A stretch of 64,000 bases of DNA from Deinococcales bacterium (GCA_043775825.1 JAYVRX010000071.1:20399-84398); one strand, 5' to 3'; shown: positions 7,356 to 64,000, numbered from the stretch's first letter. Notes: a model not told the origin generated them from the letters alone. Made by a program: numbers and translations.

Positions 7356-8129
7356 TTACCGCGCTGGGTTAATAAGCCATTTTTCGAGCAATTTTTGATA
7401 GCTGCCATCAACCTTCATGGTTTTGATTAAATCGTTGGCGATCTTCACCAAATCTGAACCCTGCTTGAAAACCATGCCGTACTCCTCGAGTCTAAGGGGT
7501 TTGCCAGTACGTTCGAGGTTTTCGGTTTTAACCAAGTAATCCGCGATTGGCGCATCGGTAATAATCGCGTCGATGGCTGCCGATTTTAAATCCGTCAGGC
7601 TGGCTTTGAGGTCGTTGTAAGCTTTGATTTGCGCTCCCAGGGCTTTGAGGTACTGGTCGGCGGCGTCAAAGCTGGTCGTGTTGGCTTGGACGCCCAAATT
7701 CAAGCCTTTAAAACTGGGTGCGGGGTAAGTTATTTTCTTTGGATTTCCTTTGCGCACCACGAGCACTGGGGCGCTCGAGAAGTACGAATCTGAAAACACC
7801 ACCCCAGGTTTTTTGGAAATGGCAATGCCGCTGATTGCCATGTCCACCAAGCTTGTGGCGGTGGCTTTGACCAGGGATTCTACGGACAGGCGTTTAAATT
7901 CGATTTTGACACCCAGTTTAGTGCTGAACGCTCGAGCCATATCGGCATCAAAGCCCACAACTTCTTGCTTTTCGTTGACGCTTTCAAACGGTGCGAATTG
8001 CGGGTCAATACCAACCACCAGCACGCCTTTTTGCTTGACGCTCGAGGCATTAATTGCGATTGCAGCACCAAAGACGAGGCTCGAGAACACCAGAAAACCT
8101 TTCAACATCATGGTTTTAGAATAACGCAT
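7356..8129 (-). CDS. amino-acid ABC transporter substrate-binding protein (SBP family 3)
   Basis: Signal peptide, then VVGIDPQFAPFE..., GFDADMARA and the typical SBP_bac_3 layout. Confidence 0.75.
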   Translation of the reverse strand: MRYSKTMMLKGFLVFSSLVFGAAIAINASSVKQKGVLVVGIDPQFAPFESVNEKQEVVGFDADMARAFSTKLGVKIEFKRLSVESLVKATATSLVDMAISGIAISKKPGVVFSDSYFSSAPVLVVRKGNPKKITYPAPSFKGLNLGVQANTTSFDAADQYLKALGAQIKAYNDLKASLTDLKSAAIDAIITDAPIADYLVKTENLERTGKPLRLEEYGMVFKQGSDLVKIANDLIKTMKVDGSYQKLLEKWLINPAR

Positions 8130-8140
8130 CTCGAGAACTT

Positions 8141-9403
8141 TTAGCGAATACCCATGCGTTTGCGAATGTCTTCAATTTTCCAACCCGTTAAGTTTGCCAG
8201 AACTTGAGCTTGGGTTTCAAAGCGCTTTGGCAGGCTGGCATTGTAATTTTCGGCGGCTTGGCATGAAGCCTGCCCTTTCCAAGCGTGACGAATCACGTAC
8301 CGACCCTGAAAGTTTTGATTGTTCGGCGTTTCACGCAATATCAAATCTTCTTTAAAGCGTAACTTGCCGTAACGCACGTGCAATCGCGTGACAAAAACCT
8401 GTCCGTTTTGACCCGCCCAACCCGCCCCAGCCGTTTGTAATTCCTCGAGCGTCGGCGGTTCGCTGGCGCAAGGATCGCACCAACTCGAGTTCCAGGCGTA
8501 CTCGACGAAAACAGCTTTTTTATTTTCGCGTTCATAAGCGCGTTTAAAAAGTGCAGGATAGAACTTATTGAAATCTTTTTGAATGTACTCTGGGACTTCC
8601 ATGTTGCTGGGGATATTCACGGTGCTGTAATTGGCGCTTTCGACCCGACCTTTGCGCGTTAATGCGTAAACAATCAAATCCTGATCGCCTTTGGCATTCA
8701 GCATTCCAAGGCGCAACGGCAGCATAAAATTCGGACTTTCAAAACTCATCTGCAACGGACGCAAACTCGAGAAACCCGTTCGATCAAAATTCTCGAGGTT
8801 GACTTTTGCCACAAAGAACTTCATGCCCATTTTGATATACGGCGCGAGGGAAGTGCTTGCACCCGTCGGGATGTTGTACTTGTTTTCTTTTAGCCAAGTC
8901 TCTAAGCCATTGCTTTGAGTGGCGGACAAAATCACAATATCGTACTCACCCACGGCGTACTGCGCCTCGACGGTCACACCAAGGGCATCCACGGGTTTGA
9001 CTGCCTTTTGCTCCACCACACCAGTGTTCGCGGTGGTGGGTGCAACCGAAGGATAGACCAATGGTTGGCACGGGTCTTCGTCAAAATACTCGACCAAGCG
9101 CGGCGCACTGTAGGCATCTAGTTTTTGTACCACCGCAGGGTCAATCACCCGAATGTCAGCTTTCTCGAGCACCACTGGCACAGGCACGACCATTGCAAAA
9201 TCCTTGACGTTGCCCTGGTAATCGCTGACCATCGTGATGTTGGTACGGTTGCCATCCCTGGAAATAATGACTTGCGAAGACTTGTTGAACAGCTTTGCAT
9301 CCCCTCTGGCGACATAAAAACCACAAAATGCCAATGCCGAACCAGCCAACATCAGACCAACTGTAAACAACGTTCGGGTTAAACCTCGAGCCTCGAATTT
9401 CAT
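8141..9403 (-). CDS. DUF2330 domain-containing secreted protein
   Basis: N-terminal signal/TM and length plus pattern (FAMVVPVP..., WCDPCA) typical of DUF2330. Confidence 0.55.
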   Translation of the reverse strand: MKFEARGLTRTLFTVGLMLAGSALAFCGFYVARGDAKLFNKSSQVIISRDGNRTNITMVSDYQGNVKDFAMVVPVPVVLEKADIRVIDPAVVQKLDAYSAPRLVEYFDEDPCQPLVYPSVAPTTANTGVVEQKAVKPVDALGVTVEAQYAVGEYDIVILSATQSNGLETWLKENKYNIPTGASTSLAPYIKMGMKFFVAKVNLENFDRTGFSSLRPLQMSFESPNFMLPLRLGMLNAKGDQDLIVYALTRKGRVESANYSTVNIPSNMEVPEYIQKDFNKFYPALFKRAYERENKKAVFVEYAWNSSWCDPCASEPPTLEELQTAGAGWAGQNGQVFVTRLHVRYGKLRFKEDLILRETPNNQNFQGRYVIRHAWKGQASCQAAENYNASLPKRFETQAQVLANLTGWKIEDIRKRMGIR

Positions 9404-9523
9404 GCTTGACCCCCTAGAGGCTTGAATTGTACGCCTTGGGTTCAGTATTCGTCATGATTGAAAGCCCGAGCCAAACAAAAAGGAGCGGAAATGAATCCGC
9501 CCCTCGAGTTCACTGAAAGCTGT

Positions 9524-10984
9524 CTACAAACGCAACAAGCTCGCAACGACGGTGGTGGTTTGACCACCGTTGATGGTGAATTCTTGAACAAAGCCACGGT
9601 AACCAGCGGCAACCACGACCAATTCGTGTGTGCCAGCAGGCAAGTTTTTAATGCTCAAGCTGCCATTGTTGCCAATTTTACCGACCAATTGACCGTTAAT
9701 GAACACGTTTGCGCCGCGCACGCTGTTGACAATGTTGAGCGTGCCATTGGTGACCACAGCTTGCAAGTTGGCGTTGACGACGGTTACACGACCACCGCTG
9801 ACGACCACGTTCTGTTGGAAGTCACGGTAACCAGCAAGGCGCACGGTTACAGCGTACTGACCGGCAGCCAATGGCAATTCGGCACTCGAGCCTGTCAGGT
9901 TGCCCTGGAATTGACCATTGATATAAACCTCTGCGCCAGATTGCGAGTTGATGCGGAGCGTACCGTTGGTGACAATAGCTTGTAGGTTGCGGGCATCGAC
10001 CACGGTGGTTTGACCCACGTTAACGTTAACAGTTTGGTTGAAATCGCTGTAACCGTCCAAGGTCACACGAACGGTGTGGTTGCCGGCGGTGGCAATACCG
10101 GTGATGCTGCCATTGGCAACGAGGCGGTTGTCCACGTAAACGCTCGAGCCGTTCGGCGCAAGAATTTGCAACGTGCCATTTTGTTGGACTGCGGTCAGAC
10201 GGGCATTGACGGCGGTGGTCTGACCAGCGTTGACGTTCACGCTGTAATTACCGTCTTGGTAACCAGGAGCGCTGACGCGAACGGTGTGTGCACCAGGAAC
10301 GGCAGCCACGCTGACAGGAGCAGTACCAATCAGTGTTCCGTCAACCAAGACGCTCGAGTTTGGCGCATTGCTGGTGATTGCCAGCGTGCCGTTGCTGACA
10401 GGACGGGCGGTGGTAAAGTCCACAAATGCCGTGGTCCAGTCGGTTGGTGGTAATGGGGTCACAACCACAGCCAAAGGACGAGCCAGACCTTCAGAGCCTT
10501 GAACGGTGGCGTTGACAAAATTGCCAGTTTGAACTTGCGGAATAATGCCTGAGAGATTGAGCGGGTTTTTGCTGGCAAGGGCAAAAATCTTTTCTTGACC
10601 AAACGGTGCTTGAATGTTCAACTGGTACTTATCGTTTGTTCCTGGGAAGGTACGGGTTTCACCAGCACGCAAGAATGGCTGTTGTCCACCAGGAAAACCA
10701 TTTGGCAACAAAACCGTAATAGCGCCTGTTGACTGAATGTTAAACACGTACACGTAAGCGTCTTGATTGACATTGACCGAAACCTTCAGGTTTTCACCCT
10801 CTAAATACAACGGGTTAGCACCAGCTTTATTCAGTGCCACAGCAACTTTTAACTCGGTAGGGGCTGGGTTGACAATCACGGCTTGAGGGCGCACCACAGG
10901 TTGAGACTGCGCAAAAGCAGAACCCAAACCAAATACACCTGCGAAAAGCGTGACTGTTGCGGCTGTAAAATTCTTAACGTTCAT
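9524..10984 (-). CDS. secreted protein with N-terminal DUF4384-like domain and tandem PEGA domains
   Basis: Signal peptide. At least four repeats of the form G.L.I.S.P.GA.V.VDG...G..P......GtH.V.v...GY. Confidence 0.65.
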   Translation of the reverse strand: MNVKNFTAATVTLFAGVFGLGSAFAQSQPVVRPQAVIVNPAPTELKVAVALNKAGANPLYLEGENLKVSVNVNQDAYVYVFNIQSTGAITVLLPNGFPGGQQPFLRAGETRTFPGTNDKYQLNIQAPFGQEKIFALASKNPLNLSGIIPQVQTGNFVNATVQGSEGLARPLAVVVTPLPPTDWTTAFVDFTTARPVSNGTLAITSNAPNSSVLVDGTLIGTAPVSVAAVPGAHTVRVSAPGYQDGNYSVNVNAGQTTAVNARLTAVQQNGTLQILAPNGSSVYVDNRLVANGSITGIATAGNHTVRVTLDGYSDFNQTVNVNVGQTTVVDARNLQAIVTNGTLRINSQSGAEVYINGQFQGNLTGSSAELPLAAGQYAVTVRLAGYRDFQQNVVVSGGRVTVVNANLQAVVTNGTLNIVNSVRGANVFINGQLVGKIGNNGSLSIKNLPAGTHELVVVAAGYRGFVQEFTINGGQTTTVVASLLRL

Positions 10985-50436: not shown

Positions 50437-50700
50437 TTATTGAGCACGAAGCAAGCGTTCATATTCTTTATGCTCACCGATCCAAAACCACAACAAATCA
50501 GATTTCGTGTTCTCAAACGCCAATGCACGATAATGCAATCCCACACGAACTGACCAATACGCCCGAATTTGCTTGAAATGCAACGACGGATGTCGATGAT
50601 CGGTTTTCAGGAGTTCATAATTTTCGTCAGCCAATTTTTGAATGGCTTCGGGTAATTTGTGGTAAAAATCCCAAAATTCTGGTGTCGTAAAATGATTCAT
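50437..50700 (-). CDS. RelE/ParE-superfamily toxin
   Basis: ...FWDFYHKLPEAIQKLADENYELLKTDHRHPSLHFKQI..YWSVRVGLHYRAL. Start chosen at MNHF. Confidence 0.65.
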   Translation of the reverse strand: MNHFTTPEFWDFYHKLPEAIQKLADENYELLKTDHRHPSLHFKQIRAYWSVRVGLHYRALAFENTKSDLLWFWIGEHKEYERLLRAQ

Positions 50701-50768
50701 GATGTTTGAGCGTTGCGTTTCCATGAGCAAACGGTATCAATCTCAAAACTCCCAAGATATAAGATTTT

Positions 50769-50969
50769 TCACAGCTTCCGAGTTAATCCCGCAGCATGAG
50801 CAGCCTTAGCTCGAGCCGCCAGATGCTCGAGTTTGCCAGCCTCAATATCACTTTCGATTTGGGCATCCCACAAATCTGCCTCGAGTTCATCAAACCAGAC
50901 TTTTAAACGCGCAATGTCTTCTGGGGGTAAAACTTTGATCTCGTGTTGAATTTGCTCGAGATTGGACAT
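50769..50969 (-). CDS. small antitoxin-like protein paired with the RelE/ParE-like toxin
   Basis: 66-aa acidic helical protein immediately upstream of the toxin gene on the same strand. Confidence 0.5.
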   Translation of the reverse strand: MSNLEQIQHEIKVLPPEDIARLKVWFDELEADLWDAQIESDIEAGKLEHLAARAKAAHAAGLTRKL

Positions 50970-51084: not shown

Positions 51085-52584
51085 ATGCTGACAGGAGAAA
51101 TTCGCAATCAAATAGACCGCGTTTGGGATGCTTTCTGGACGGGCGGCATCAGCAACCCGCTCGAGGTGATCGAACAACTGACCTACCTGCTGTTCATCAA
51201 ACGCCTCGATGACACGCACAAACTCGAGCTGAACAAACTGCAAACCATCGGTGAGGGCAAACTAATCTTCACCGAAGAGCAAGAACAATACCGTTGGAGC
51301 GTCTTTCAAAACGCCGAATCGGGCGATTTGTACAACATTATTGCCAACAAGGTCTTCCCATTCATCCGCGAGATGGGACAAGCCGACACCACCTTTGCGC
51401 GGCACATGAAAGACGCACGCTTTACCCTACCGCCAGAAAAAGCGGCGCTACTGACCAAAGTCGTGGATTTACTGAGCGCCATCAACATGGACAACCGCGA
51501 CACCAAAGGTGACCTGTACGAATATTTACTTTCCAAACTAGCCACCAGCGGACAAAACGGTCAATTTCGCACGCCAAGACACATCATCAAGTTAATCATC
51601 GAACTGACCCAACCAAATCCAGACGACATTATTTGCGACCCAGCCTGCGGCACAGCCGGATTTCTGGTCGCCGCGCTCGAGTACCTGATCGAGCATCACC
51701 GCAACGATATTTACAACAAAAAACGTCAGCATTTTGAAACCAAAATGTTCAACGCCTTCGATTTTGACAGTACTATGCTACGAATCGCCAGCATGAACAT
51801 GATGCTGCACGGCATCGCCAACGCCAACATTCAAAACAAAGACAGCCTCTCAGACACCAACGCCGACGCCAAAGAAGAATACAGCCTGATCCTCGCCAAC
51901 CCGCCGTTCAAAGGCAGTTTGCAATTTGAAACCGCCGCCAAAGACCTGGTGCGCGACTTGGGCATGAAAGCCCCCAAACCCAAAAAAGATGGCAAACCGA
52001 GCGGCGTGCAAGCCAAAACCGAACTGATGTTTTTGGTGTTGTTCTTACGCCTTTTAAAACCAGGTGGACGCTGCGCCGTGATTATCCCCGACGGTGTGCT
52101 GTTCGGCAGCAGCAACGCCCACCAAACCACCCGCAAAACCATCGTCGAAAATCATAAACTCGAGGCAATCATTTCCATGCCGAGCGGCGTTTTTAAACCT
52201 TACGCTGGCGTCAGCACCGCCATCATGATTTTTACCAAAACCGGCATTGGCGGCACGGACAACGTCTGGTTTTACGACATGCGAAGCGATGGTTACAGCC
52301 TGGATGACAAACGCAACCCAACCAACGACAACGACATTCCAGACATTATTCACCGTTACCGCAACCTCGAGGGTGAAACAAACCGTACCCGCACCGATCA
52401 AAGTTTTTTCGTACCAAAACCCGAGATTGCCGCGCAAAATTATGATCTCAGCATCAACCGGTACAAACAAACCGTGCATGAAGTCGTACAGCACGAAGCG
52501 CCACACAAAATCTTGGATGAACTCGAGGGTTTGGAACTCGAGATTGGGCAAGGTTTAAAAGAATTACGGGCGATGCTGACATGA
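51085..52584 (+). CDS. hsdM: type I restriction-modification system methyltransferase subunit
   Basis: HsdM N-terminal domain (IWDAFW-like VWDAFWTGG, YLLFIKRL), SAM motif DPACGTAGFL, catalytic NPPF. Confidence 0.95.
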   Translation: MLTGEIRNQIDRVWDAFWTGGISNPLEVIEQLTYLLFIKRLDDTHKLELNKLQTIGEGKLIFTEEQEQYRWSVFQNAESGDLYNIIANKVFPFIREMGQADTTFARHMKDARFTLPPEKAALLTKVVDLLSAINMDNRDTKGDLYEYLLSKLATSGQNGQFRTPRHIIKLIIELTQPNPDDIICDPACGTAGFLVAALEYLIEHHRNDIYNKKRQHFETKMFNAFDFDSTMLRIASMNMMLHGIANANIQNKDSLSDTNADAKEEYSLILANPPFKGSLQFETAAKDLVRDLGMKAPKPKKDGKPSGVQAKTELMFLVLFLRLLKPGGRCAVIIPDGVLFGSSNAHQTTRKTIVENHKLEAIISMPSGVFKPYAGVSTAIMIFTKTGIGGTDNVWFYDMRSDGYSLDDKRNPTNDNDIPDIIHRYRNLEGETNRTRTDQSFFVPKPEIAAQNYDLSINRYKQTVHEVVQHEAPHKILDELEGLELEIGQGLKELRAMLT

Positions 52585-52808
52585 ACTCGAGAATGGTGAA
52601 ATTAAATAAAAAAATAACAATAAATTCAATTCGGCAGACACTGTCTGCCGAATTCAGACCGATTCAACAAAATCAAATTCCGCAGACACTGTCTGCGGAA
52701 TTCAATAACCTTCAAAACCTCGAGCGCGAAGGGTGCAAGATGAAAAGTAAGACCGTGAAACTCGAGATTGGGCAAGGTTTAAAAGAATTGCGCGGGATGT
52801 TGGCATGA
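52585..52808 (+). mobile_element. 224-bp insert at the hsdM/hsdS junction: twin 27-nt palindromes plus a duplicated hsdM 3' end
   Basis: Palindromes AATTCGGCAGACACTGTCTGCCGAATT (52628-52654) and AATTCCGCAGACACTGTCTGCGGAATT (52676-52702). 52759-52808 repeats 52535-52584 (45/50). A 75-codon ORF spans the insert and is ATGA-coupled at both ends. Confidence 0.6.
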
Positions 52809-54077: not shown

Positions 54078-54449
54078 ATGGCGCGGTTGTACTTGTGTTT
54101 TAACCCGTATGAACCAAAACCAAAACGTGCGCCTTTGCTTTCGGATTGGCTCGAGTTGTGCTTGCATGGGAAGCAAGAATGCGTTAACAAAATGATTGAA
54201 ATGGTCGAAGATTTACACTCAGATGGGGTAGAAAGTCGGTACTTAAAATGGTTCGCGGGTGGTGTTGGCGAACTGAAAAGCCGAACTCCAATTGGTGGCG
54301 CTCGAGTTTACTTTTTTCGGATTGGCGAAGAAGATTTTGCTTTAACCCGCGCAGAATGCAAAAAAGAATCCGTTGCAGATCAGCAATTGATTGATTGGAC
54401 GTTTGAAGTGGCGACGCTGTACAAACAAGATGTGGAGGTGTTCTTATGA
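54078..54449 (+). CDS. RelE/HigB-like toxin of the phage Gp49 (DUF891) type
   Basis: ...GELKSRTPIGGARVYFFRIGEEDFALTRAECKKE.... 4-nt overlap with the downstream HTH gene. Confidence 0.55.
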   Translation: MARLYLCFNPYEPKPKRAPLLSDWLELCLHGKQECVNKMIEMVEDLHSDGVESRYLKWFAGGVGELKSRTPIGGARVYFFRIGEEDFALTRAECKKESVADQQLIDWTFEVATLYKQDVEVFL

Positions 54450-54832
54450 AAAAAGCTTTACCACCTCGAGAAAGTCTGCAATCGAGCATTGCCGAATTAA
54501 AAGCCATGCCTCTCGGAAGTATCATCTCGAGCGGACGTAAAGTGAGGGCAAAATCGGTGAGTGTTACTGACCTGAAACAAGATTTGTCAGATGCCTTGCT
54601 TGCCGAAAGTATTGGTGATTTGCTGCGTGAAGCCCGTTCTCGGCGGGGAATGACGGGTACGGAATTGGCTTCTAAATTGGGTACGAGCAAAGTGCGGGTT
54701 TCGCAACTCGAACATGCAGAATTAAATATTGAATTGGCGACTTTGGCTCGAGTGGCTGGTGTTCTGGGTTACGAGTTGCAGGTGGCTTTTGTGGCTGGTT
54801 CTGAACGTATTTCGCATCAGCACAAGGTTTGA
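54446..54832 (+). CDS. XRE-family HTH antitoxin (HigA-like)
   Basis: LREARSRRGMTGTELASKLGTSKVRVSQLEH. Confidence 0.7.
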   Translation: MKKALPPRESLQSSIAELKAMPLGSIISSGRKVRAKSVSVTDLKQDLSDALLAESIGDLLREARSRRGMTGTELASKLGTSKVRVSQLEHAELNIELATLARVAGVLGYELQVAFVAGSERISHQHKV

Positions 54833-60652: not shown

Positions 60653-61663
60653 ATGAATCTCGAGCAGACCACGACATTACGCCCTAACGCCCTGATAGAC
60701 CGTTTTGGGCGCATCATTCGTGACCTTCGGATTTCGGTCACGCCGCGTTGCAACTATCACTGCACCTATTGCGACCCGCTTGGTCACACGCATCCAGAAC
60801 CCGTTGGCGTTTTAAGTGTCAAAGATGTGGACAATTTTGTTCGCGCCTCGGCGTTGGTCGGCTTGGACGCGGCACGCTTCACGGGCGGCGAACCCTTGCT
60901 GCGCAAAGAACTGCCCGAAATGATGGCAAATGCCGCCGTTACCCCAGGGATCAAAGACATTGCGATCACCACCAACGGCACACTCTTTCGTCGTCGCCAC
61001 AAAGAATTGCTCGAGGCTGGCTTAAATCGCGTCAATATTTCTTTGGACGCCGTAGATCAAAGCGTGTTCGCCAAAGCCACCGGTGGAGGAGACGTAAAAG
61101 TGGTGCTCGACGCGATAAACCTGGCGCTCGAGTTAAACCTGCACCCCGTCAAAATCAACGCCGTCAGCATTCGCGGCATCAACGACCTCGAGATCATCAA
61201 CATGGCAAGACTTTCGCTCGAGAAACCCTTGCATGTGCGGTTTATTGAGTACATGCACTTGAACAACTCGCAACTCGAGGTTTACAAAAACGCCTTTCTA
61301 CCAGGTTCAGAAGCCAAAACCATGATTGAACAAGAATTTGGTACGCTCGAGGTTGTCCCCACCGACCCAAGCAGTCCCGCTCGAGTCTTCAAAATTGCGG
61401 GGTCGCAAGGCAGCATTGGTTTTATCAACCCAATATCAGAACCTTTTTGTGGGGCTTGCTCGAGAATGCGACTGACCGCAGACCGTAAAGTACGGGCGTG
61501 CTTGCTGACAGACCGCGAACTGGATGCTGGCGCGGCGTTTGATTCCGAAAACCCGATTGAAAGCATTATTGATGTGCTGCTCGAGGCGGCGCACCGAAAA
61601 GAACGCATGGGTGATATTTTGCCGAAAATTCGGGAACGCACGATGGTAGCGATAGGTGGGTAA
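60653..61663 (+). CDS. moaA: GTP 3',8-cyclase (molybdenum cofactor biosynthesis protein A)
   Basis: LRISVTPRCNYHCTYC, FTGGEPL, ITTNG, C-terminal CGACSRMRLTADRKVRACL. Confidence 0.9.
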   Translation: MNLEQTTTLRPNALIDRFGRIIRDLRISVTPRCNYHCTYCDPLGHTHPEPVGVLSVKDVDNFVRASALVGLDAARFTGGEPLLRKELPEMMANAAVTPGIKDIAITTNGTLFRRRHKELLEAGLNRVNISLDAVDQSVFAKATGGGDVKVVLDAINLALELNLHPVKINAVSIRGINDLEIINMARLSLEKPLHVRFIEYMHLNNSQLEVYKNAFLPGSEAKTMIEQEFGTLEVVPTDPSSPARVFKIAGSQGSIGFINPISEPFCGACSRMRLTADRKVRACLLTDRELDAGAAFDSENPIESIIDVLLEAAHRKERMGDILPKIRERTMVAIGG

Positions 61664-61693
61664 AAAATAATTGTTTTGTGCTAATTTAAACCC

Positions 61694-61930
61694 ATGACGA
61701 TTGCACTCTCCAAACAACTCGAGACGCTGATCGAAGAAAAAATTGCTTCGGGACGGTATCAATCGGCTTCTGAAGTCATGAGTGAGGCGCTACGGTTGCT
61801 CGAGGAAACCGAGCGTTTTGAAGCCATGAAATTGAATGCGTTACGCCGTGATATTCAAGCGGGTTTGGATAGTGGTGAACCTGTGCCTTTTGACAAAGCA
61901 AGCATTCGTAACCTTGCTCAGAATCGCTAA
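61694..61930 (+). CDS. parD: ParD-family (RHH/CopG) antitoxin
   Basis: ...SGRYQSASEVMSEALRLLEE..., and RRDIQAGLDSGE is typical of ParD/COG3609. Confidence 0.8.
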   Translation: MTIALSKQLETLIEEKIASGRYQSASEVMSEALRLLEETERFEAMKLNALRRDIQAGLDSGEPVPFDKASIRNLAQNR

Positions 61931-61935
61931 CCTAA

Positions 61936-62235
61936 ATGGCTTTTTTCGTTCTGCGTCCTTTGGCACAAGAAGACCTTGCACAAACGTATTCGTACATTTT
62001 GCAAACCAATTTAGAACAAGCCGAACAGTGGCTCGAGGGTGTTGAAAATCAGTGTCAGATTCTGGCAGAAATGCCAACAATGGGACGCGCTCGCCTCGAA
62101 CTTCCTGGTAATGTTCGCAGTTTTGTGTTTGCACGATACGTGATCTTTTACCGACCCAATGCTGACGGTGTTGAAATTGTTCGGGTTTTGCATGGCTCGA
62201 GAGATTTGGGGCAGATTGATTTTGGGAATTCTTGA
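61936..62235 (+). CDS. parE: ParE-family toxin
   Basis: ...A.EDL..TYSYI.......A..W........ILAEMP.MGR......G.VRSF....YVIFYR....GVEIVRVLHGSRDL. Confidence 0.8.
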   Translation: MAFFVLRPLAQEDLAQTYSYILQTNLEQAEQWLEGVENQCQILAEMPTMGRARLELPGNVRSFVFARYVIFYRPNADGVEIVRVLHGSRDLGQIDFGNS

Positions 62236-62243
62236 TGGAATTC

Positions 62244-62359
62244 AAAACCCGATTGAAAGCATTATTGACGTGCTGCTCGAGGCGGCGCACCGAAAAGAAC
62301 GCATGGGGGATATTTTGCCGAAAATTCGGGAACGCACGATGGTAGCGATAGGTGGTTGA
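62244..62359 (+). pseudogene. orphan duplicate of the last 38 codons of moaA
   Basis: 62244-62355 matches 61548-61659 at 110/112 nt. It encodes NPIESIIDVLLEAAHRKERMGDILPKIRERTMVAIGG plus a stop, with no upstream moaA body. Confidence 0.9.
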
Positions 62360-62496
62360 AGCTCGAGAAATTGGATGTTCATATCAAAAATTAAGACTTC
62401 ACTGGAACTGATTGAATCAAACCAGCGTAATGATGAAGTGGTATTTGGTTTACCGCTCATGTGCATGAGCAGATTTAATTTTTTTGGAGGTCTTTG

Positions 62497-63033
62497 ATGT
62501 TTCGCTGGTTCATTAAAATGATTTATGGCTCGACACTTATCACCTTTAATAGTTCTTATAACCTCCCTAAGTCTGTTGTCCGACTCAGAACCGCAACTAG
62601 TACGGCAAATTCTTTTTCGTTACGTCAGTCTTCAGCTACAGGTGTGGTGACGGAACAAAAGGTTACACTTCAACGGAGCATTCCTTTTGTTGGGAATTCG
62701 TTTAAGCCTTATTTTGTGGGTCGTTTTTCTAACAATAACGGTCAGGTTGTTTTGATTGGTCAATTCACCATGCACTGGTATGTCAAAATATTTTTGAGCA
62801 TCTGGTTTGGGTTTCTCAGCTTGATAACTGTTTTAGGTCTGTTCGCCACAATAACAATAAAGCAAAATCAAGCCACAGGTTGGCAATTCGCGCTTTTCTG
62901 CGTTGGGATGTTCGGTGCTGGAACGCTTTTGGTTTGGTCAGGTCAGTGGTTTGCTCGTCAAGATATCGCATGGTTGTCAAGCATTATTCAGAAGGCATTG
63001 TCTGAAGTGAATCTAAACGATGAAAAATCATGA
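62497..63033 (+). CDS. hypothetical membrane protein
   Basis: GGAGG lies 7 nt before the ATG. Two C-terminal TM helices. Visibly AT-richer and has no CTCGAG. Confidence 0.5.
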   Translation: MFRWFIKMIYGSTLITFNSSYNLPKSVVRLRTATSTANSFSLRQSSATGVVTEQKVTLQRSIPFVGNSFKPYFVGRFSNNNGQVVLIGQFTMHWYVKIFLSIWFGFLSLITVLGLFATITIKQNQATGWQFALFCVGMFGAGTLLVWSGQWFARQDIAWLSSIIQKALSEVNLNDEKS

Positions 63034-63094
63034 ATAAACCGTTGGGAACAGTTTAAAACCATCCCCAACAAAATTTAAAAACTCGAGATTTACA
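63033..63094. repeat. duplicate of the rplI stop-codon and terminator region
   Basis: 62 nt matching 63834-63895 with 4 mismatches. Includes a degenerate copy of the terminator hairpin and TTACA (rplI stop plus 2 nt). Confidence 0.85.
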
Positions 63095-63101
63095 ACCAGT
63101 A

Positions 63102-63338
63102 TTAAAGCGCATCCTTTGCATCTGGCTTAATATTCGGAACTGTTTGCAAAGCAGCTAAGAATTTTTCTCGAGAACCTCGCCCAGCGCGTTCTTCAAGAAT
63201 GGTTTGTGTCTCGAGGGCGCTGAGTTTCTCGGCAACGGCTGTGGCGATTAAGGTGTTTAAGCTGATGCCTTCGCTTTCGGAAAGTTTTTTCAGTTCTGTA
63301 TGAACGGTGGTTGGTAAGCGCACGCTGAGGGTTGTCAT
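63102..63338 (-). CDS. ribbon-helix-helix / HicB-like antitoxin
   Basis: MTTLSVRLPTTVHTELKKLSESEGISLNTLIATAVAEKL. 4-nt overlap with the upstream PIN gene. Confidence 0.7.
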   Translation of the reverse strand: MTTLSVRLPTTVHTELKKLSESEGISLNTLIATAVAEKLSALETQTILEERAGRGSREKFLAALQTVPNIKPDAKDAL

Positions 63339-63754
63339 GCTGTACTCCTTTGCATTTGTAAAAATTCTTGAGGTTGGATGGCTCGAATCCCAAATTTTTC
63401 TGAACCCACAAAGTCTTTGATGTTGTATGTCACGATGTACTCGCATTGTGCGTGCCATGCCAATTCGAGCAGGTGGTCATCTTTTGGGTCGCGTATGGCT
63501 GGTCGCCAGGTGTAATACAACCGAGGGCGGTAGGCAATGCTTGCCAGGTAATCGAGGATGTCTTCAATGGCTTGGTGCTCGAGTGGGATTTTCATTTCTG
63601 GGCGCTTAAGGACATCTTCGTACTCGAGAATCAAAGCGGTTGAAAGGGCAAGGGTGAATTTTTGTTCGTACAGGAGCGTTAAAATCTGGTAGGAAGCCCC
63701 TTGGTTTGAACGTAAGCCTGAAACAATGACGTTGGTGTCAAGAACAACGGGCAT
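63335..63754 (-). CDS. PIN-domain toxin (TIGR00305-like), toxin-first operon order
   Basis: MPVVLDTNVIVSGL, ...PKDDHLLELA..., YIVTYNIKDF. Confidence 0.8.
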   Translation of the reverse strand: MPVVLDTNVIVSGLRSNQGASYQILTLLYEQKFTLALSTALILEYEDVLKRPEMKIPLEHQAIEDILDYLASIAYRPRLYYTWRPAIRDPKDDHLLELAWHAQCEYIVTYNIKDFVGSEKFGIRAIQPQEFLQMQRSTA

Positions 63755-63836
63755 AATTTATGGTAGTACAGATGCAACCAAAATTCAAGCTCGAGTCTGA
63801 CAAAACCTCAGCATCTCAACGGCAGTGCTCAACAAT

Positions 63837-63871
63837 AAAACGTTGGGGACAGTTTAAAACCATCCCCAACG
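63837..63871 (-). terminator. rho-independent terminator of rplI
   Basis: On the minus strand: CGTTGGGGA-13 nt loop-TCCCCAACG followed by TTTTATT. Confidence 0.7.
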
Positions 63872-63890
63872 AAATTTTAAAACTCGAGAT

Positions 63891-64000
63891 TTACAGCGCG
63901 GTAATGTTTAACTTCAAAGGAATTGGCACTTCAGGATGTGGTTTGTACACCACTTCGTACTCGCCTAAATCCTTGATGGCTTTGCCCATGTCAATCTTGC
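63891..64000 (-). CDS. rplI: 50S ribosomal protein L9, C-terminal part (gene continues beyond the window)
   Basis: Reverse translation ...KIDMGKAIKDLGEYEVVYKPHPEVPIPLKLNITAL* matches the L9 C-terminal domain pattern. Confidence 0.7.
   Translation of the reverse strand, partial: KIDMGKAIKDLGEYEVVYKPHPEVPIPLKLNITAL

Follow-up and report, generated by a model that had tools for sequence, protein, structure and literature searches.

Several known events leave the end of a gene duplicated beside newly acquired DNA. In conjugation assays with E. coli, single crossovers of circular molecules duplicated 109-950 bp of a gene end, and most apparent products of homology-facilitated illegitimate recombination (HFIR) turned out to be such crossovers (PMC3240628). 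HFIR has also been proposed as the origin of orphan immunity genes of type VI secretion (T6SS) and of orphan Rhs 3' ends (PMC5361080). Elements such as e14 and phage 21 integrate into icd and likewise duplicate a gene end (PMC13626634). In the view of one study (PMC13617665), small toxin-antitoxin (TA) islets that lie between core genes spread through recombination in their flanks and decay by loss of the toxin. Here we describe a locus that touches on all of these. It lies in a 64,000-nucleotide stretch from a Deinococcales bacterium (GCA_043775825.1, JAYVRX010000071.1:20399-84398; hereafter the window), where a ParD/ParE TA pair directly behind moaA, the gene for GTP 3',8-cyclase, is bracketed by a 112-nt direct repeat of the moaA end. 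With a probability of roughly 0.7, this repeat is a scar that formed when haplotypes with and without parDE recombined at the left edge of the hotspot between moaA and rplI, and most likely no novel type of mobile element is behind it.

The radical SAM gene moaA is intact (60653-61663, plus strand, stop codon TAA; Pfam Radical_SAM 2.7e-30, Mob_synth_C 3.7e-26), and its product is 94-96% identical in amino acids to orthologues in Deinococcales metagenome-assembled genomes (MAGs). Its last 37 codons (copy 1, 61548-61659) recur on the same strand at 62244-62355, and a repeat search with pairwise alignment gives 110 identical positions out of 112. Both mismatches are synonymous and fall in third codon positions (61573/62269, T/C, GAT/GAC for Asp; 61612/62308, T/G, GGT/GGG for Gly). 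Identity stops one base before the stop codons, the ends reading GGG TAA at 61658-61663 and GGT TGA at 62354-62359. Alignment with parDE-free relatives moves the start of copy 2 one base to the left, to 62243 (the C of CAA), and the non-coding orphan tail with its stop codon (copy 2) spans 62243-62359. The 584 bp between the copies (61660-62243) code, by open reading frame (ORF) and Pfam search, for ParD and ParE only. Just six direct repeats of at least 35 nt occur in the whole 64 kb, and, judged from its length and near-identity, a 112-nt repeat of this kind cannot be a product of chance. No integrase or transposase was found among the ORFs from 54.9 kb to the end of the window. An earlier note on this DNA had described a duplication of the moaA end around parDE, with moaA intact, an orphan tail 3' of parE and no recombinase, and each of these points is borne out.

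Could the repeat have been created by metagenome assembly, through the joining of contigs from parDE-bearing and parDE-free strains? Related strains with different regions downstream of moaA do co-occur in the same samples, and the tail is a collapsed repeat of high depth. However, two public sediment runs, X1 and X2, each contain an exact 666-nt contig at ~10x, the depth of the window strain, which covers 61634-62299. It leads from the end of copy 1 through parDE and a 7-nt filler into 56 nt of copy 2, including a private C at 62269. Because these contigs carry the junction of parE and copy 2 exactly, the repeat structure is not an assembly artefact, which answers a worry expressed in the earlier note. 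Furthermore, the independent MAG L003 has the same architecture of moaA, parDE and orphan tail, and L004, together with a contig of a third run, X3, shows a related one in independent assemblies. The probability of an artefact is thus close to negligible.

The history of the repeat becomes visible when relatives are compared. By its MoaA relatives, the window belongs to an uncultured genus of the Deinococcales whose known members are all MAGs from freshwater and sediment. In this genus, the gene order mqnE-moaA ... rplI-rpsR-ssb is conserved, and the DNA between the moaA stop codon and the rplI terminator is different in every genome examined. Since the flanks are conserved and the cargo is variable, the repeat sits at the left border of a recombination hotspot between core genes. 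The cargo is a 306-aa ORF in L001 and a WD40 protein in L003; a group of contigs from the Joint Genome Institute has a 133-aa ORF, and the window has a 179-aa membrane protein with a PIN/RHH pair. In L004, the cargo (7387-10336) is a three-gene ABC-3C system (CTD10, MC6 and DUF2326; PADLOC PDC-M68A/B, E 8e-148), so the spot also hosts defence-type systems.

The left border itself occurs in four states. In the empty state (L001, L002, L064 and L181), moaA ends in TGA and is followed by cargo, with no parDE. In the second state, moaA ends in TAA and is followed by parD, parE and cargo, with no second tail; this form is present in contigs with the 133-aa cargo (L159-L168, L177 and L179/L180) and in L176, where parE is followed directly by a copy of the rplI terminator region (D2) and the PIN/RHH cassette. 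The third state, found in the window and in L003, is the second state plus an orphan tail. In the fourth (L004, 7041-7332, and the X3 contig, with a joint 61930>62253), parD is kept, parE and the first 9 nt of the tail are deleted, and a decayed 53-nt tail remains. The earlier note had proposed a comparison of empty and occupied sites; both kinds are found, and so are occupied sites without a repeat.

Both parental arrangements of the window thus exist independently, and their limits in the window are sharp. On the left side, homology between the window and the repeat-free occupied forms ends exactly at the parE stop codon, 62235. On the right side, collinearity with the parDE-free L181 extends over 62243-63026; it begins with the orphan tail's first base and stops just short of the first D2 copy (D2A). 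In L181, moaA ends ...GGT TGA AGCTCGAG... and is followed by a spacer and then by a homologue of the 179-aa gene, as behind copy 2 of the window; the sequence after this stop codon, ...GGT TGA AGCTCGAGAAATTGGATG..., continues via the spacer to that homologue, which is 75% identical in amino acids. The TGA copy with its downstream flank is the native moaA end, as in all four parDE-free relatives. Given the collinearity with L181, copy 2 and what follows it as far as the copy of the rplI terminator correspond to the right part of a parDE-free haplotype, and the window up to the parE stop corresponds to a parDE-bearing one. Only seven bases, TGGAATT at 62236-62242, belong to neither haplotype; they form a junction of illegitimate type on the plus strand, without extended homology.

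The allele states of the two copies agree with this division. The copies differ at the base before the repeat (G/C, in a Glu/Gln codon), at 61573, at 61612, in the last codon and in the stop codon. At every one of these sites, copy 1 has the state linked to parDE (GAA before the repeat, T at 61612, GGG TAA) and copy 2 has the parDE-free state. In addition, the two copies share variants that are unseen in other lineages, CCG AAA and GTA, and for this reason they come from the same species-level lineage. The copies thus come from two versions of the locus within one species-level population, a parDE-linked haplotype and a parDE-free one. Contig depths agree with this. In X1 and X2, contigs that cross the junction of tail, TGA and flank with 3-5 differences from the window reach 19-28x, and contig depth in the flank up to ~62416-62430 is far above that of parDE, which is represented in these runs only by the window strain's version at 10.8x. 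The question raised earlier, whether the copies stem from different lineages, is answered in this sense: one lineage, two haplotypes.

A further strain that co-occurs with the window strain adds to the range of haplotypes. In X1 and X2, a loose end at window position 62343 leads into a moaA end ...GGGGGG TAG GG ATGAGTTACGAT, of which only 30 nt of consensus were seen. Since these 30 nt place the 133-aa cargo directly after moaA, with no parDE, this cargo exists both with and without parDE, in neither case with a duplication. In one MAG (GFS_3132), moaA is split across the ends of two contigs, L031 and L064, a split compatible with an assembly broken here by strain variation or by repeats. A scan of metagenomes with MoaA yielded one moderately close relative, L080 (80% aa identity), which added no occupancy data, and exact-sequence look-ups of the window's MoaA and ParE returned no record.

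How could the two haplotypes have been joined? Two exchanges would be needed, one homologous and one illegitimate. The illegitimate join would lie 7 nt past the parE stop codon and enter the parDE-free haplotype 113 nt before its moaA stop, and for this reason the last 37 codons of moaA occur twice. The homologous crossover would have taken place in moaA or, on the far side with incoming cargo, in the rplI terminator D2. Such a product could arise by a single crossover of a circularised fragment, consisting of the moaA tail and parDE, into a parDE-free chromosome (Campbell-type integration), or by HFIR of linear DNA in either direction. Campbell-type integration, which the earlier note had named, is viable and has its E. 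coli precedent (PMC3240628), but HFIR gives the same product.

On this reading, the locus adds a case to a known class of events, the products of single crossover or HFIR, and its likeness to the precedents can be stated point by point. As in the Campbell-type products (PMC3240628), the insert is bracketed by a direct duplication of a gene end, 109-950 bp long there and 112-113 bp here, and no dedicated recombinase is needed. In contrast to that laboratory plasmid under selection, no circle has been seen here, and the donor would be a natural haplotype of the same locus. With the HFIR or displacement model for orphan T6SS immunity genes and Rhs/CDI (contact-dependent inhibition) 3' ends (PMC5361080; PMC2884548), the locus shares one homologous anchor in a conserved gene, one illegitimate join, the keeping of both the old and the new downstream module, and the orphan fragment of the conserved gene that is left behind. 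The setting is different, since the locus has a TA pair beside a housekeeping gene and a single orphan fragment, whereas the model concerns effector-immunity arrays with strings of orphans. By analogy, selection against losing a protective gene, immunity there and antitoxin here, could favour such products.

The parDE pair itself is much older than the repeat. It is a compact operon on the plus strand with the antitoxin first, parD (61694-61930, 78 aa; PF03693, E 9.2e-15, 55 bits against a cut-off of 21) being separated by a 5-nt gap from parE (61936-62235, 99 aa; PF05016, E 4.1e-19, 69 bits against a cut-off of 23). With a ParD/RHH domain, a ParE/RelE-fold domain and this gene order, the pair has what defines a type II ParD/ParE system, and it is an ordinary member of the family by domain content, gene order and selection, with predicted toxicity. 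Against six relatives, the ratio of nonsynonymous to synonymous substitution (dN/dS) is 0.03-0.16 for parD; for parE it is 0.06-0.15. These ratios indicate purifying selection. Synonymous divergence (dS) of both genes between lineages is 0.2-0.6, and nucleotide identity is comparable for parDE (87-93%) and moaA (88-95%); ParE homologues at the same locus in metagenomes are 89-94% identical in amino acids. Because these values match those of moaA, the pair has been under selection at the site from before the divergence of the lineages, or else it has moved together with its flanks. The copies of the moaA tail differ at only 2 of 112 positions, so parDE arrived long before the duplication, or at least long before the copies were last homogenised.

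Transcription of parDE probably starts from a candidate -10 element of its own or comes from moaA read-through. The candidate, found by sequence inspection, is an extended -10 motif, TGcTAATTT (61679-61687, plus strand), which ends 6 nt ahead of the parD start codon (ATG), is shared in conserved form by L003 and L004, and would possibly yield a leaderless transcript; a consensus promoter scan did not call it. The motif lies within the part shared with a parDE cassette in another genomic context (L178), where homology begins at 61676. Altogether, homologues with 73-83% amino acid identity occur in three other contexts: behind aroQ, between alr and a VanW gene, and between a helix-turn-helix (HTH) regulator and a luciferase-like gene (L178). 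No flanking repeats were found around the aroQ and alr/VanW homologues (L169-L175), the two contexts covered by this check.

Three facts therefore separate the duplication from the insertion of parDE: the occupied forms without a repeat, the parDE-free L181 and the age gap. At least four sub-lineages have this parDE at the identical moaA stop codon but lack a second tail (L159-L168, L176, L177 and L179/L180), and the idea that insertion of parDE as such makes the duplication is not supported in view of these forms. Nor is there support for the need of an unknown mechanism with long staggered cuts, suggested in the earlier note as an alternative, given the repeat-free aroQ and alr/VanW homologues and a parDE pair far older than the duplication.

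The same evidence bears on the possibility that the 696-bp unit of one tail plus parDE is a cassette, autonomous or mobilised in trans, which makes long target duplications or cycles through an excised circle. The repeat brackets the TA pair alone; a PIN/RHH cassette at 63102-63754 is likewise bracketed by a duplicated border (D2), with 7 nt between stop codon and border in both cases; and the hsdM tail is also duplicated around a small insert. However, many relatives are occupied at the same site without duplication, as are the homologues at the two other sites tested, and the three duplications are unequal (112, 67 and 53 nt; 98, 91 and 89% identity). There is no recombinase, and no terminal inverted repeats pair the cassette ends. 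Joints expected from precise deletion (a 696-nt skip) or from a circle were absent from the contigs of 12 runs, a weak test with short contigs and a tail common to several strains. A mobile cassette is thus very unlikely. The locus also lacks the marks of a transposon or insertion sequence, since there is no transposase, no terminal inverted repeats are found, and the duplication is absent from many insertions at the same site. An integron gene cassette was considered and rejected, as no attC-like structure was seen by eye behind parE and no integrase was found.

A related possibility is that the repeat marks the remnant of an integrase-driven island which targeted the moaA 3' end, brought a substitute tail and later lost everything but parDE. 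Islands of this kind are classically recognised by a duplicated gene end and an orphan C-terminal fragment, as with icd and icdC around e14 (PMC13626634), and a TA pair can persist when the remainder of an island is gone (PMC13617665). Like e14 and phage 21 in icd, the locus has an intact target gene, an orphan fragment on the far side and copy differences that are mostly synonymous. The likeness is one of outline only, since the integrase gene, the short core site and the kilobase length of those elements are all missing here. A tyrosine or serine recombinase is absent from 54.9 kb to the window end and from related parDE loci, and the repeat-free forms have no far attachment site. The substitute-gene-end architecture would fit, yet the two copies share lineage-specific variants, so the tail said to be borne by the element is not foreign, and occupied sites without a repeat exist; moreover, parDE and moaA have co-diverged. 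An island of this kind must be regarded as scarcely probable. Chromosomal type II TA islets (PMC13617665) also resemble the locus: they too consist of a pair between core genes at a high-turnover spot without mobile-element genes, and the toxin loss with antitoxin retention in L004 has its counterpart there. That study does not describe duplicated core-gene ends, and term searches in it found flanking direct repeats nowhere mentioned. The state of L004 and X3 is the toxin-first erosion that is expected for chromosomal TA pairs.

The alternative that deserves most care is an old duplication, made by Campbell-type integration when parDE arrived, with the repeat-free forms explained by later loss of the orphan tail and the window copies homogenised by gene conversion or by recombination with parDE-free alleles. 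Several observations favour it and weigh against a fresh join of two haplotypes. The orphan tail of L003 starts at the same moaA coordinate as that of the window (AAAACC), and a CAT variant is common to the orphan tails of L003 and L004 and absent from all functional tails. Lineage-specific variants are shared by the copies within one genome, CCG AAA and GTA in the window and GCA ATT in L003, and L004 and X3 look like a decayed derivative of the duplicated form. The L003 and L004 data fit one older duplication, with the window copy refreshed by conversion or recombination, at least as well as repeated independent events, which could have used the same microhomology, and the lineages with orphan tails form no clade in the identity matrices of parDE or moaA. 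In addition, the allele-state argument rests on few sites, the comparison set consists of short metagenome contigs or MAGs with no long read across the locus, and the data do not separate Campbell-type integration from HFIR or one recipient haplotype from the other.

On the other side, an old duplication would require several independent clean losses of the orphan tail, in the group with the 133-aa cargo, in L176 and possibly in more lineages. By eye, short matches behind parE in repeat-free relatives (GATGCTG...GATTCC...GATTG) had looked like moaA-tail remnants, but local alignment against shuffled sequences gave p 0.3-0.8, and the idea was dropped for this reason; no trace of a lost tail is thus left there. 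Furthermore, copy 2 of the window is parDE-free at every differing site and collinear with L181 far past the repeat, which a fresh join explains more simply than conversion from copy 1. The junctions are also unlike one another in the window, L003 and L004; in L003, the orphan tail has a junction sequence unlike that of the window, carries a 4-nt indel and is ~90% identical to the functional tail of the same genome. On balance, an ancient duplication appears unlikely but has to be taken seriously, and recombination between two haplotypes of the locus is preferred.

If the repeat arose by such recombination, the consequences of the orphan tail are likely passive. Its 112 bp of homology would allow RecA to mediate a precise loss of parDE, a loss that would be penalised if ParE is active, and it could be a left anchor for later exchange of cargo that leaves parDE in place. 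Natural competence is known in cultured Deinococcus, and the lineage of the window is uncultured. The locus shows in natural populations what was mostly shown by laboratory assays, namely products of the single-crossover or HFIR type, and it offers a series of states from the empty site through parDE alone and parDE with an orphan tail to parD alone with a decayed tail. It is also a worked example of how a long direct repeat can mimic a new insertion mechanism until relatives reveal two haplotypes joined out of register.

Behind the orphan tail, the native moaA 3' flank of the parDE-free haplotype (62360-62493, plus strand), collinear with L181 directly after the moaA stop codon, contains a terminator-like hairpin at 62455-62470. 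It is followed by the 179-aa cargo gene (62494-63033, plus strand), which encodes a predicted membrane protein without a family match. D2A (63028-63094, unstranded) is a second copy of the rplI stop codon and terminator region, 67 nt long and 91% identical to D2B (63829-63895, unstranded), the native copy, which holds the stop codon of rplI (63891-63893, minus strand) together with the terminator hairpin and forms the right border of the hotspot. The D2 hairpin was considered as a dispersed repeat or as an attC/dif-like site and rejected, as it was found only next to rplI and has the shape of a terminator with its T-run on the rplI strand.

Between D2A and D2B lies a second TA-like cassette (63102-63754, minus strand), with a PIN_3 toxin (63335-63754; PF13470, 5e-26) and an RHH/HicB-like antitoxin (63102-63341; HicB 4e-4, slightly under the Pfam curated cut-off). 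Exactly 7 nt separate the last TA stop codon from the duplicated border in both cassettes (62236-62242 and 63095-63101). At the parE junction, GGAATTC is present at 62224-62230 and again at 62237-62243. Both the shared spacing and this recurrence may be coincidence.

The two borders of the hotspot follow one pattern in the window, moaA tail, parDE, moaA tail on the left and rplI terminator, PIN/RHH, rplI terminator on the right. This suggests a speculative and rather doubtful idea, that TA pairs at both borders bias turnover toward out-of-register additions of cargo. Clean replacement of cargo through the core genes would delete a TA pair and be punished by its toxin, and what survives would be the rare recombinants, joined out of register, in which new cargo and part of the donor's core gene have been added behind the TA pair. 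That orphan part could in turn act as a landing pad for further swaps. The only support is the pattern of this one window, including the 7-nt spacing and the hsdM/hsdS duplication. Were the pattern widespread, it would matter for the question whether gene turnover in hotspots is shaped by chromosomal TA pairs.

Elsewhere in the window, the last 53 nt of hsdM (52532-52584) recur at 52756-52808 with 89% identity around a 171-nt insert. The insert contains two hairpin repeats (52622-52656 and 52670-52704), and the hairpins are also found in other metagenome contexts; the ATGA of the second hsdM copy overlaps the hsdS start at 52805, and exact X1/X2 contigs support this structure. Two further TA-like pairs lie nearby: a ParE-like protein (50437-50730, minus strand), whose partner has 66 aa (pair region 50437-50969), and, wedged between the hsdS and hsdR genes of a type I restriction system, a 123-aa ORF that overlaps an HTH_3 protein (54078-54832).

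The composition of the window is unusual as well. The palindrome CTCGAG occurs 427 times in 64 kb against ~16 expected, or once per 150 bp, evenly spread and also inside genes. Among the loci L001-L016, its density is 4.4-8.5 per kb in close Deinococcales relatives and 0.8-2.2 per kb in Thermaceae and Trueperaceae. Such iteration resembles the highly iterated palindrome of cyanobacteria; a full-text literature search found nothing that combines CTCGAG with that term. Four of ~9 independent repeat borders lie within 8 nt of a CTCGAG, against 15% expected, numbers too few for a conclusion. Many other palindromic hexamers with ~15 expected occurrences each are wholly absent, among them CGATCG, CCTAGG, CCATGG, CAGCTG, AGGCCT, ATGCAT and TATATA, a pattern that points to strong restriction-site avoidance.

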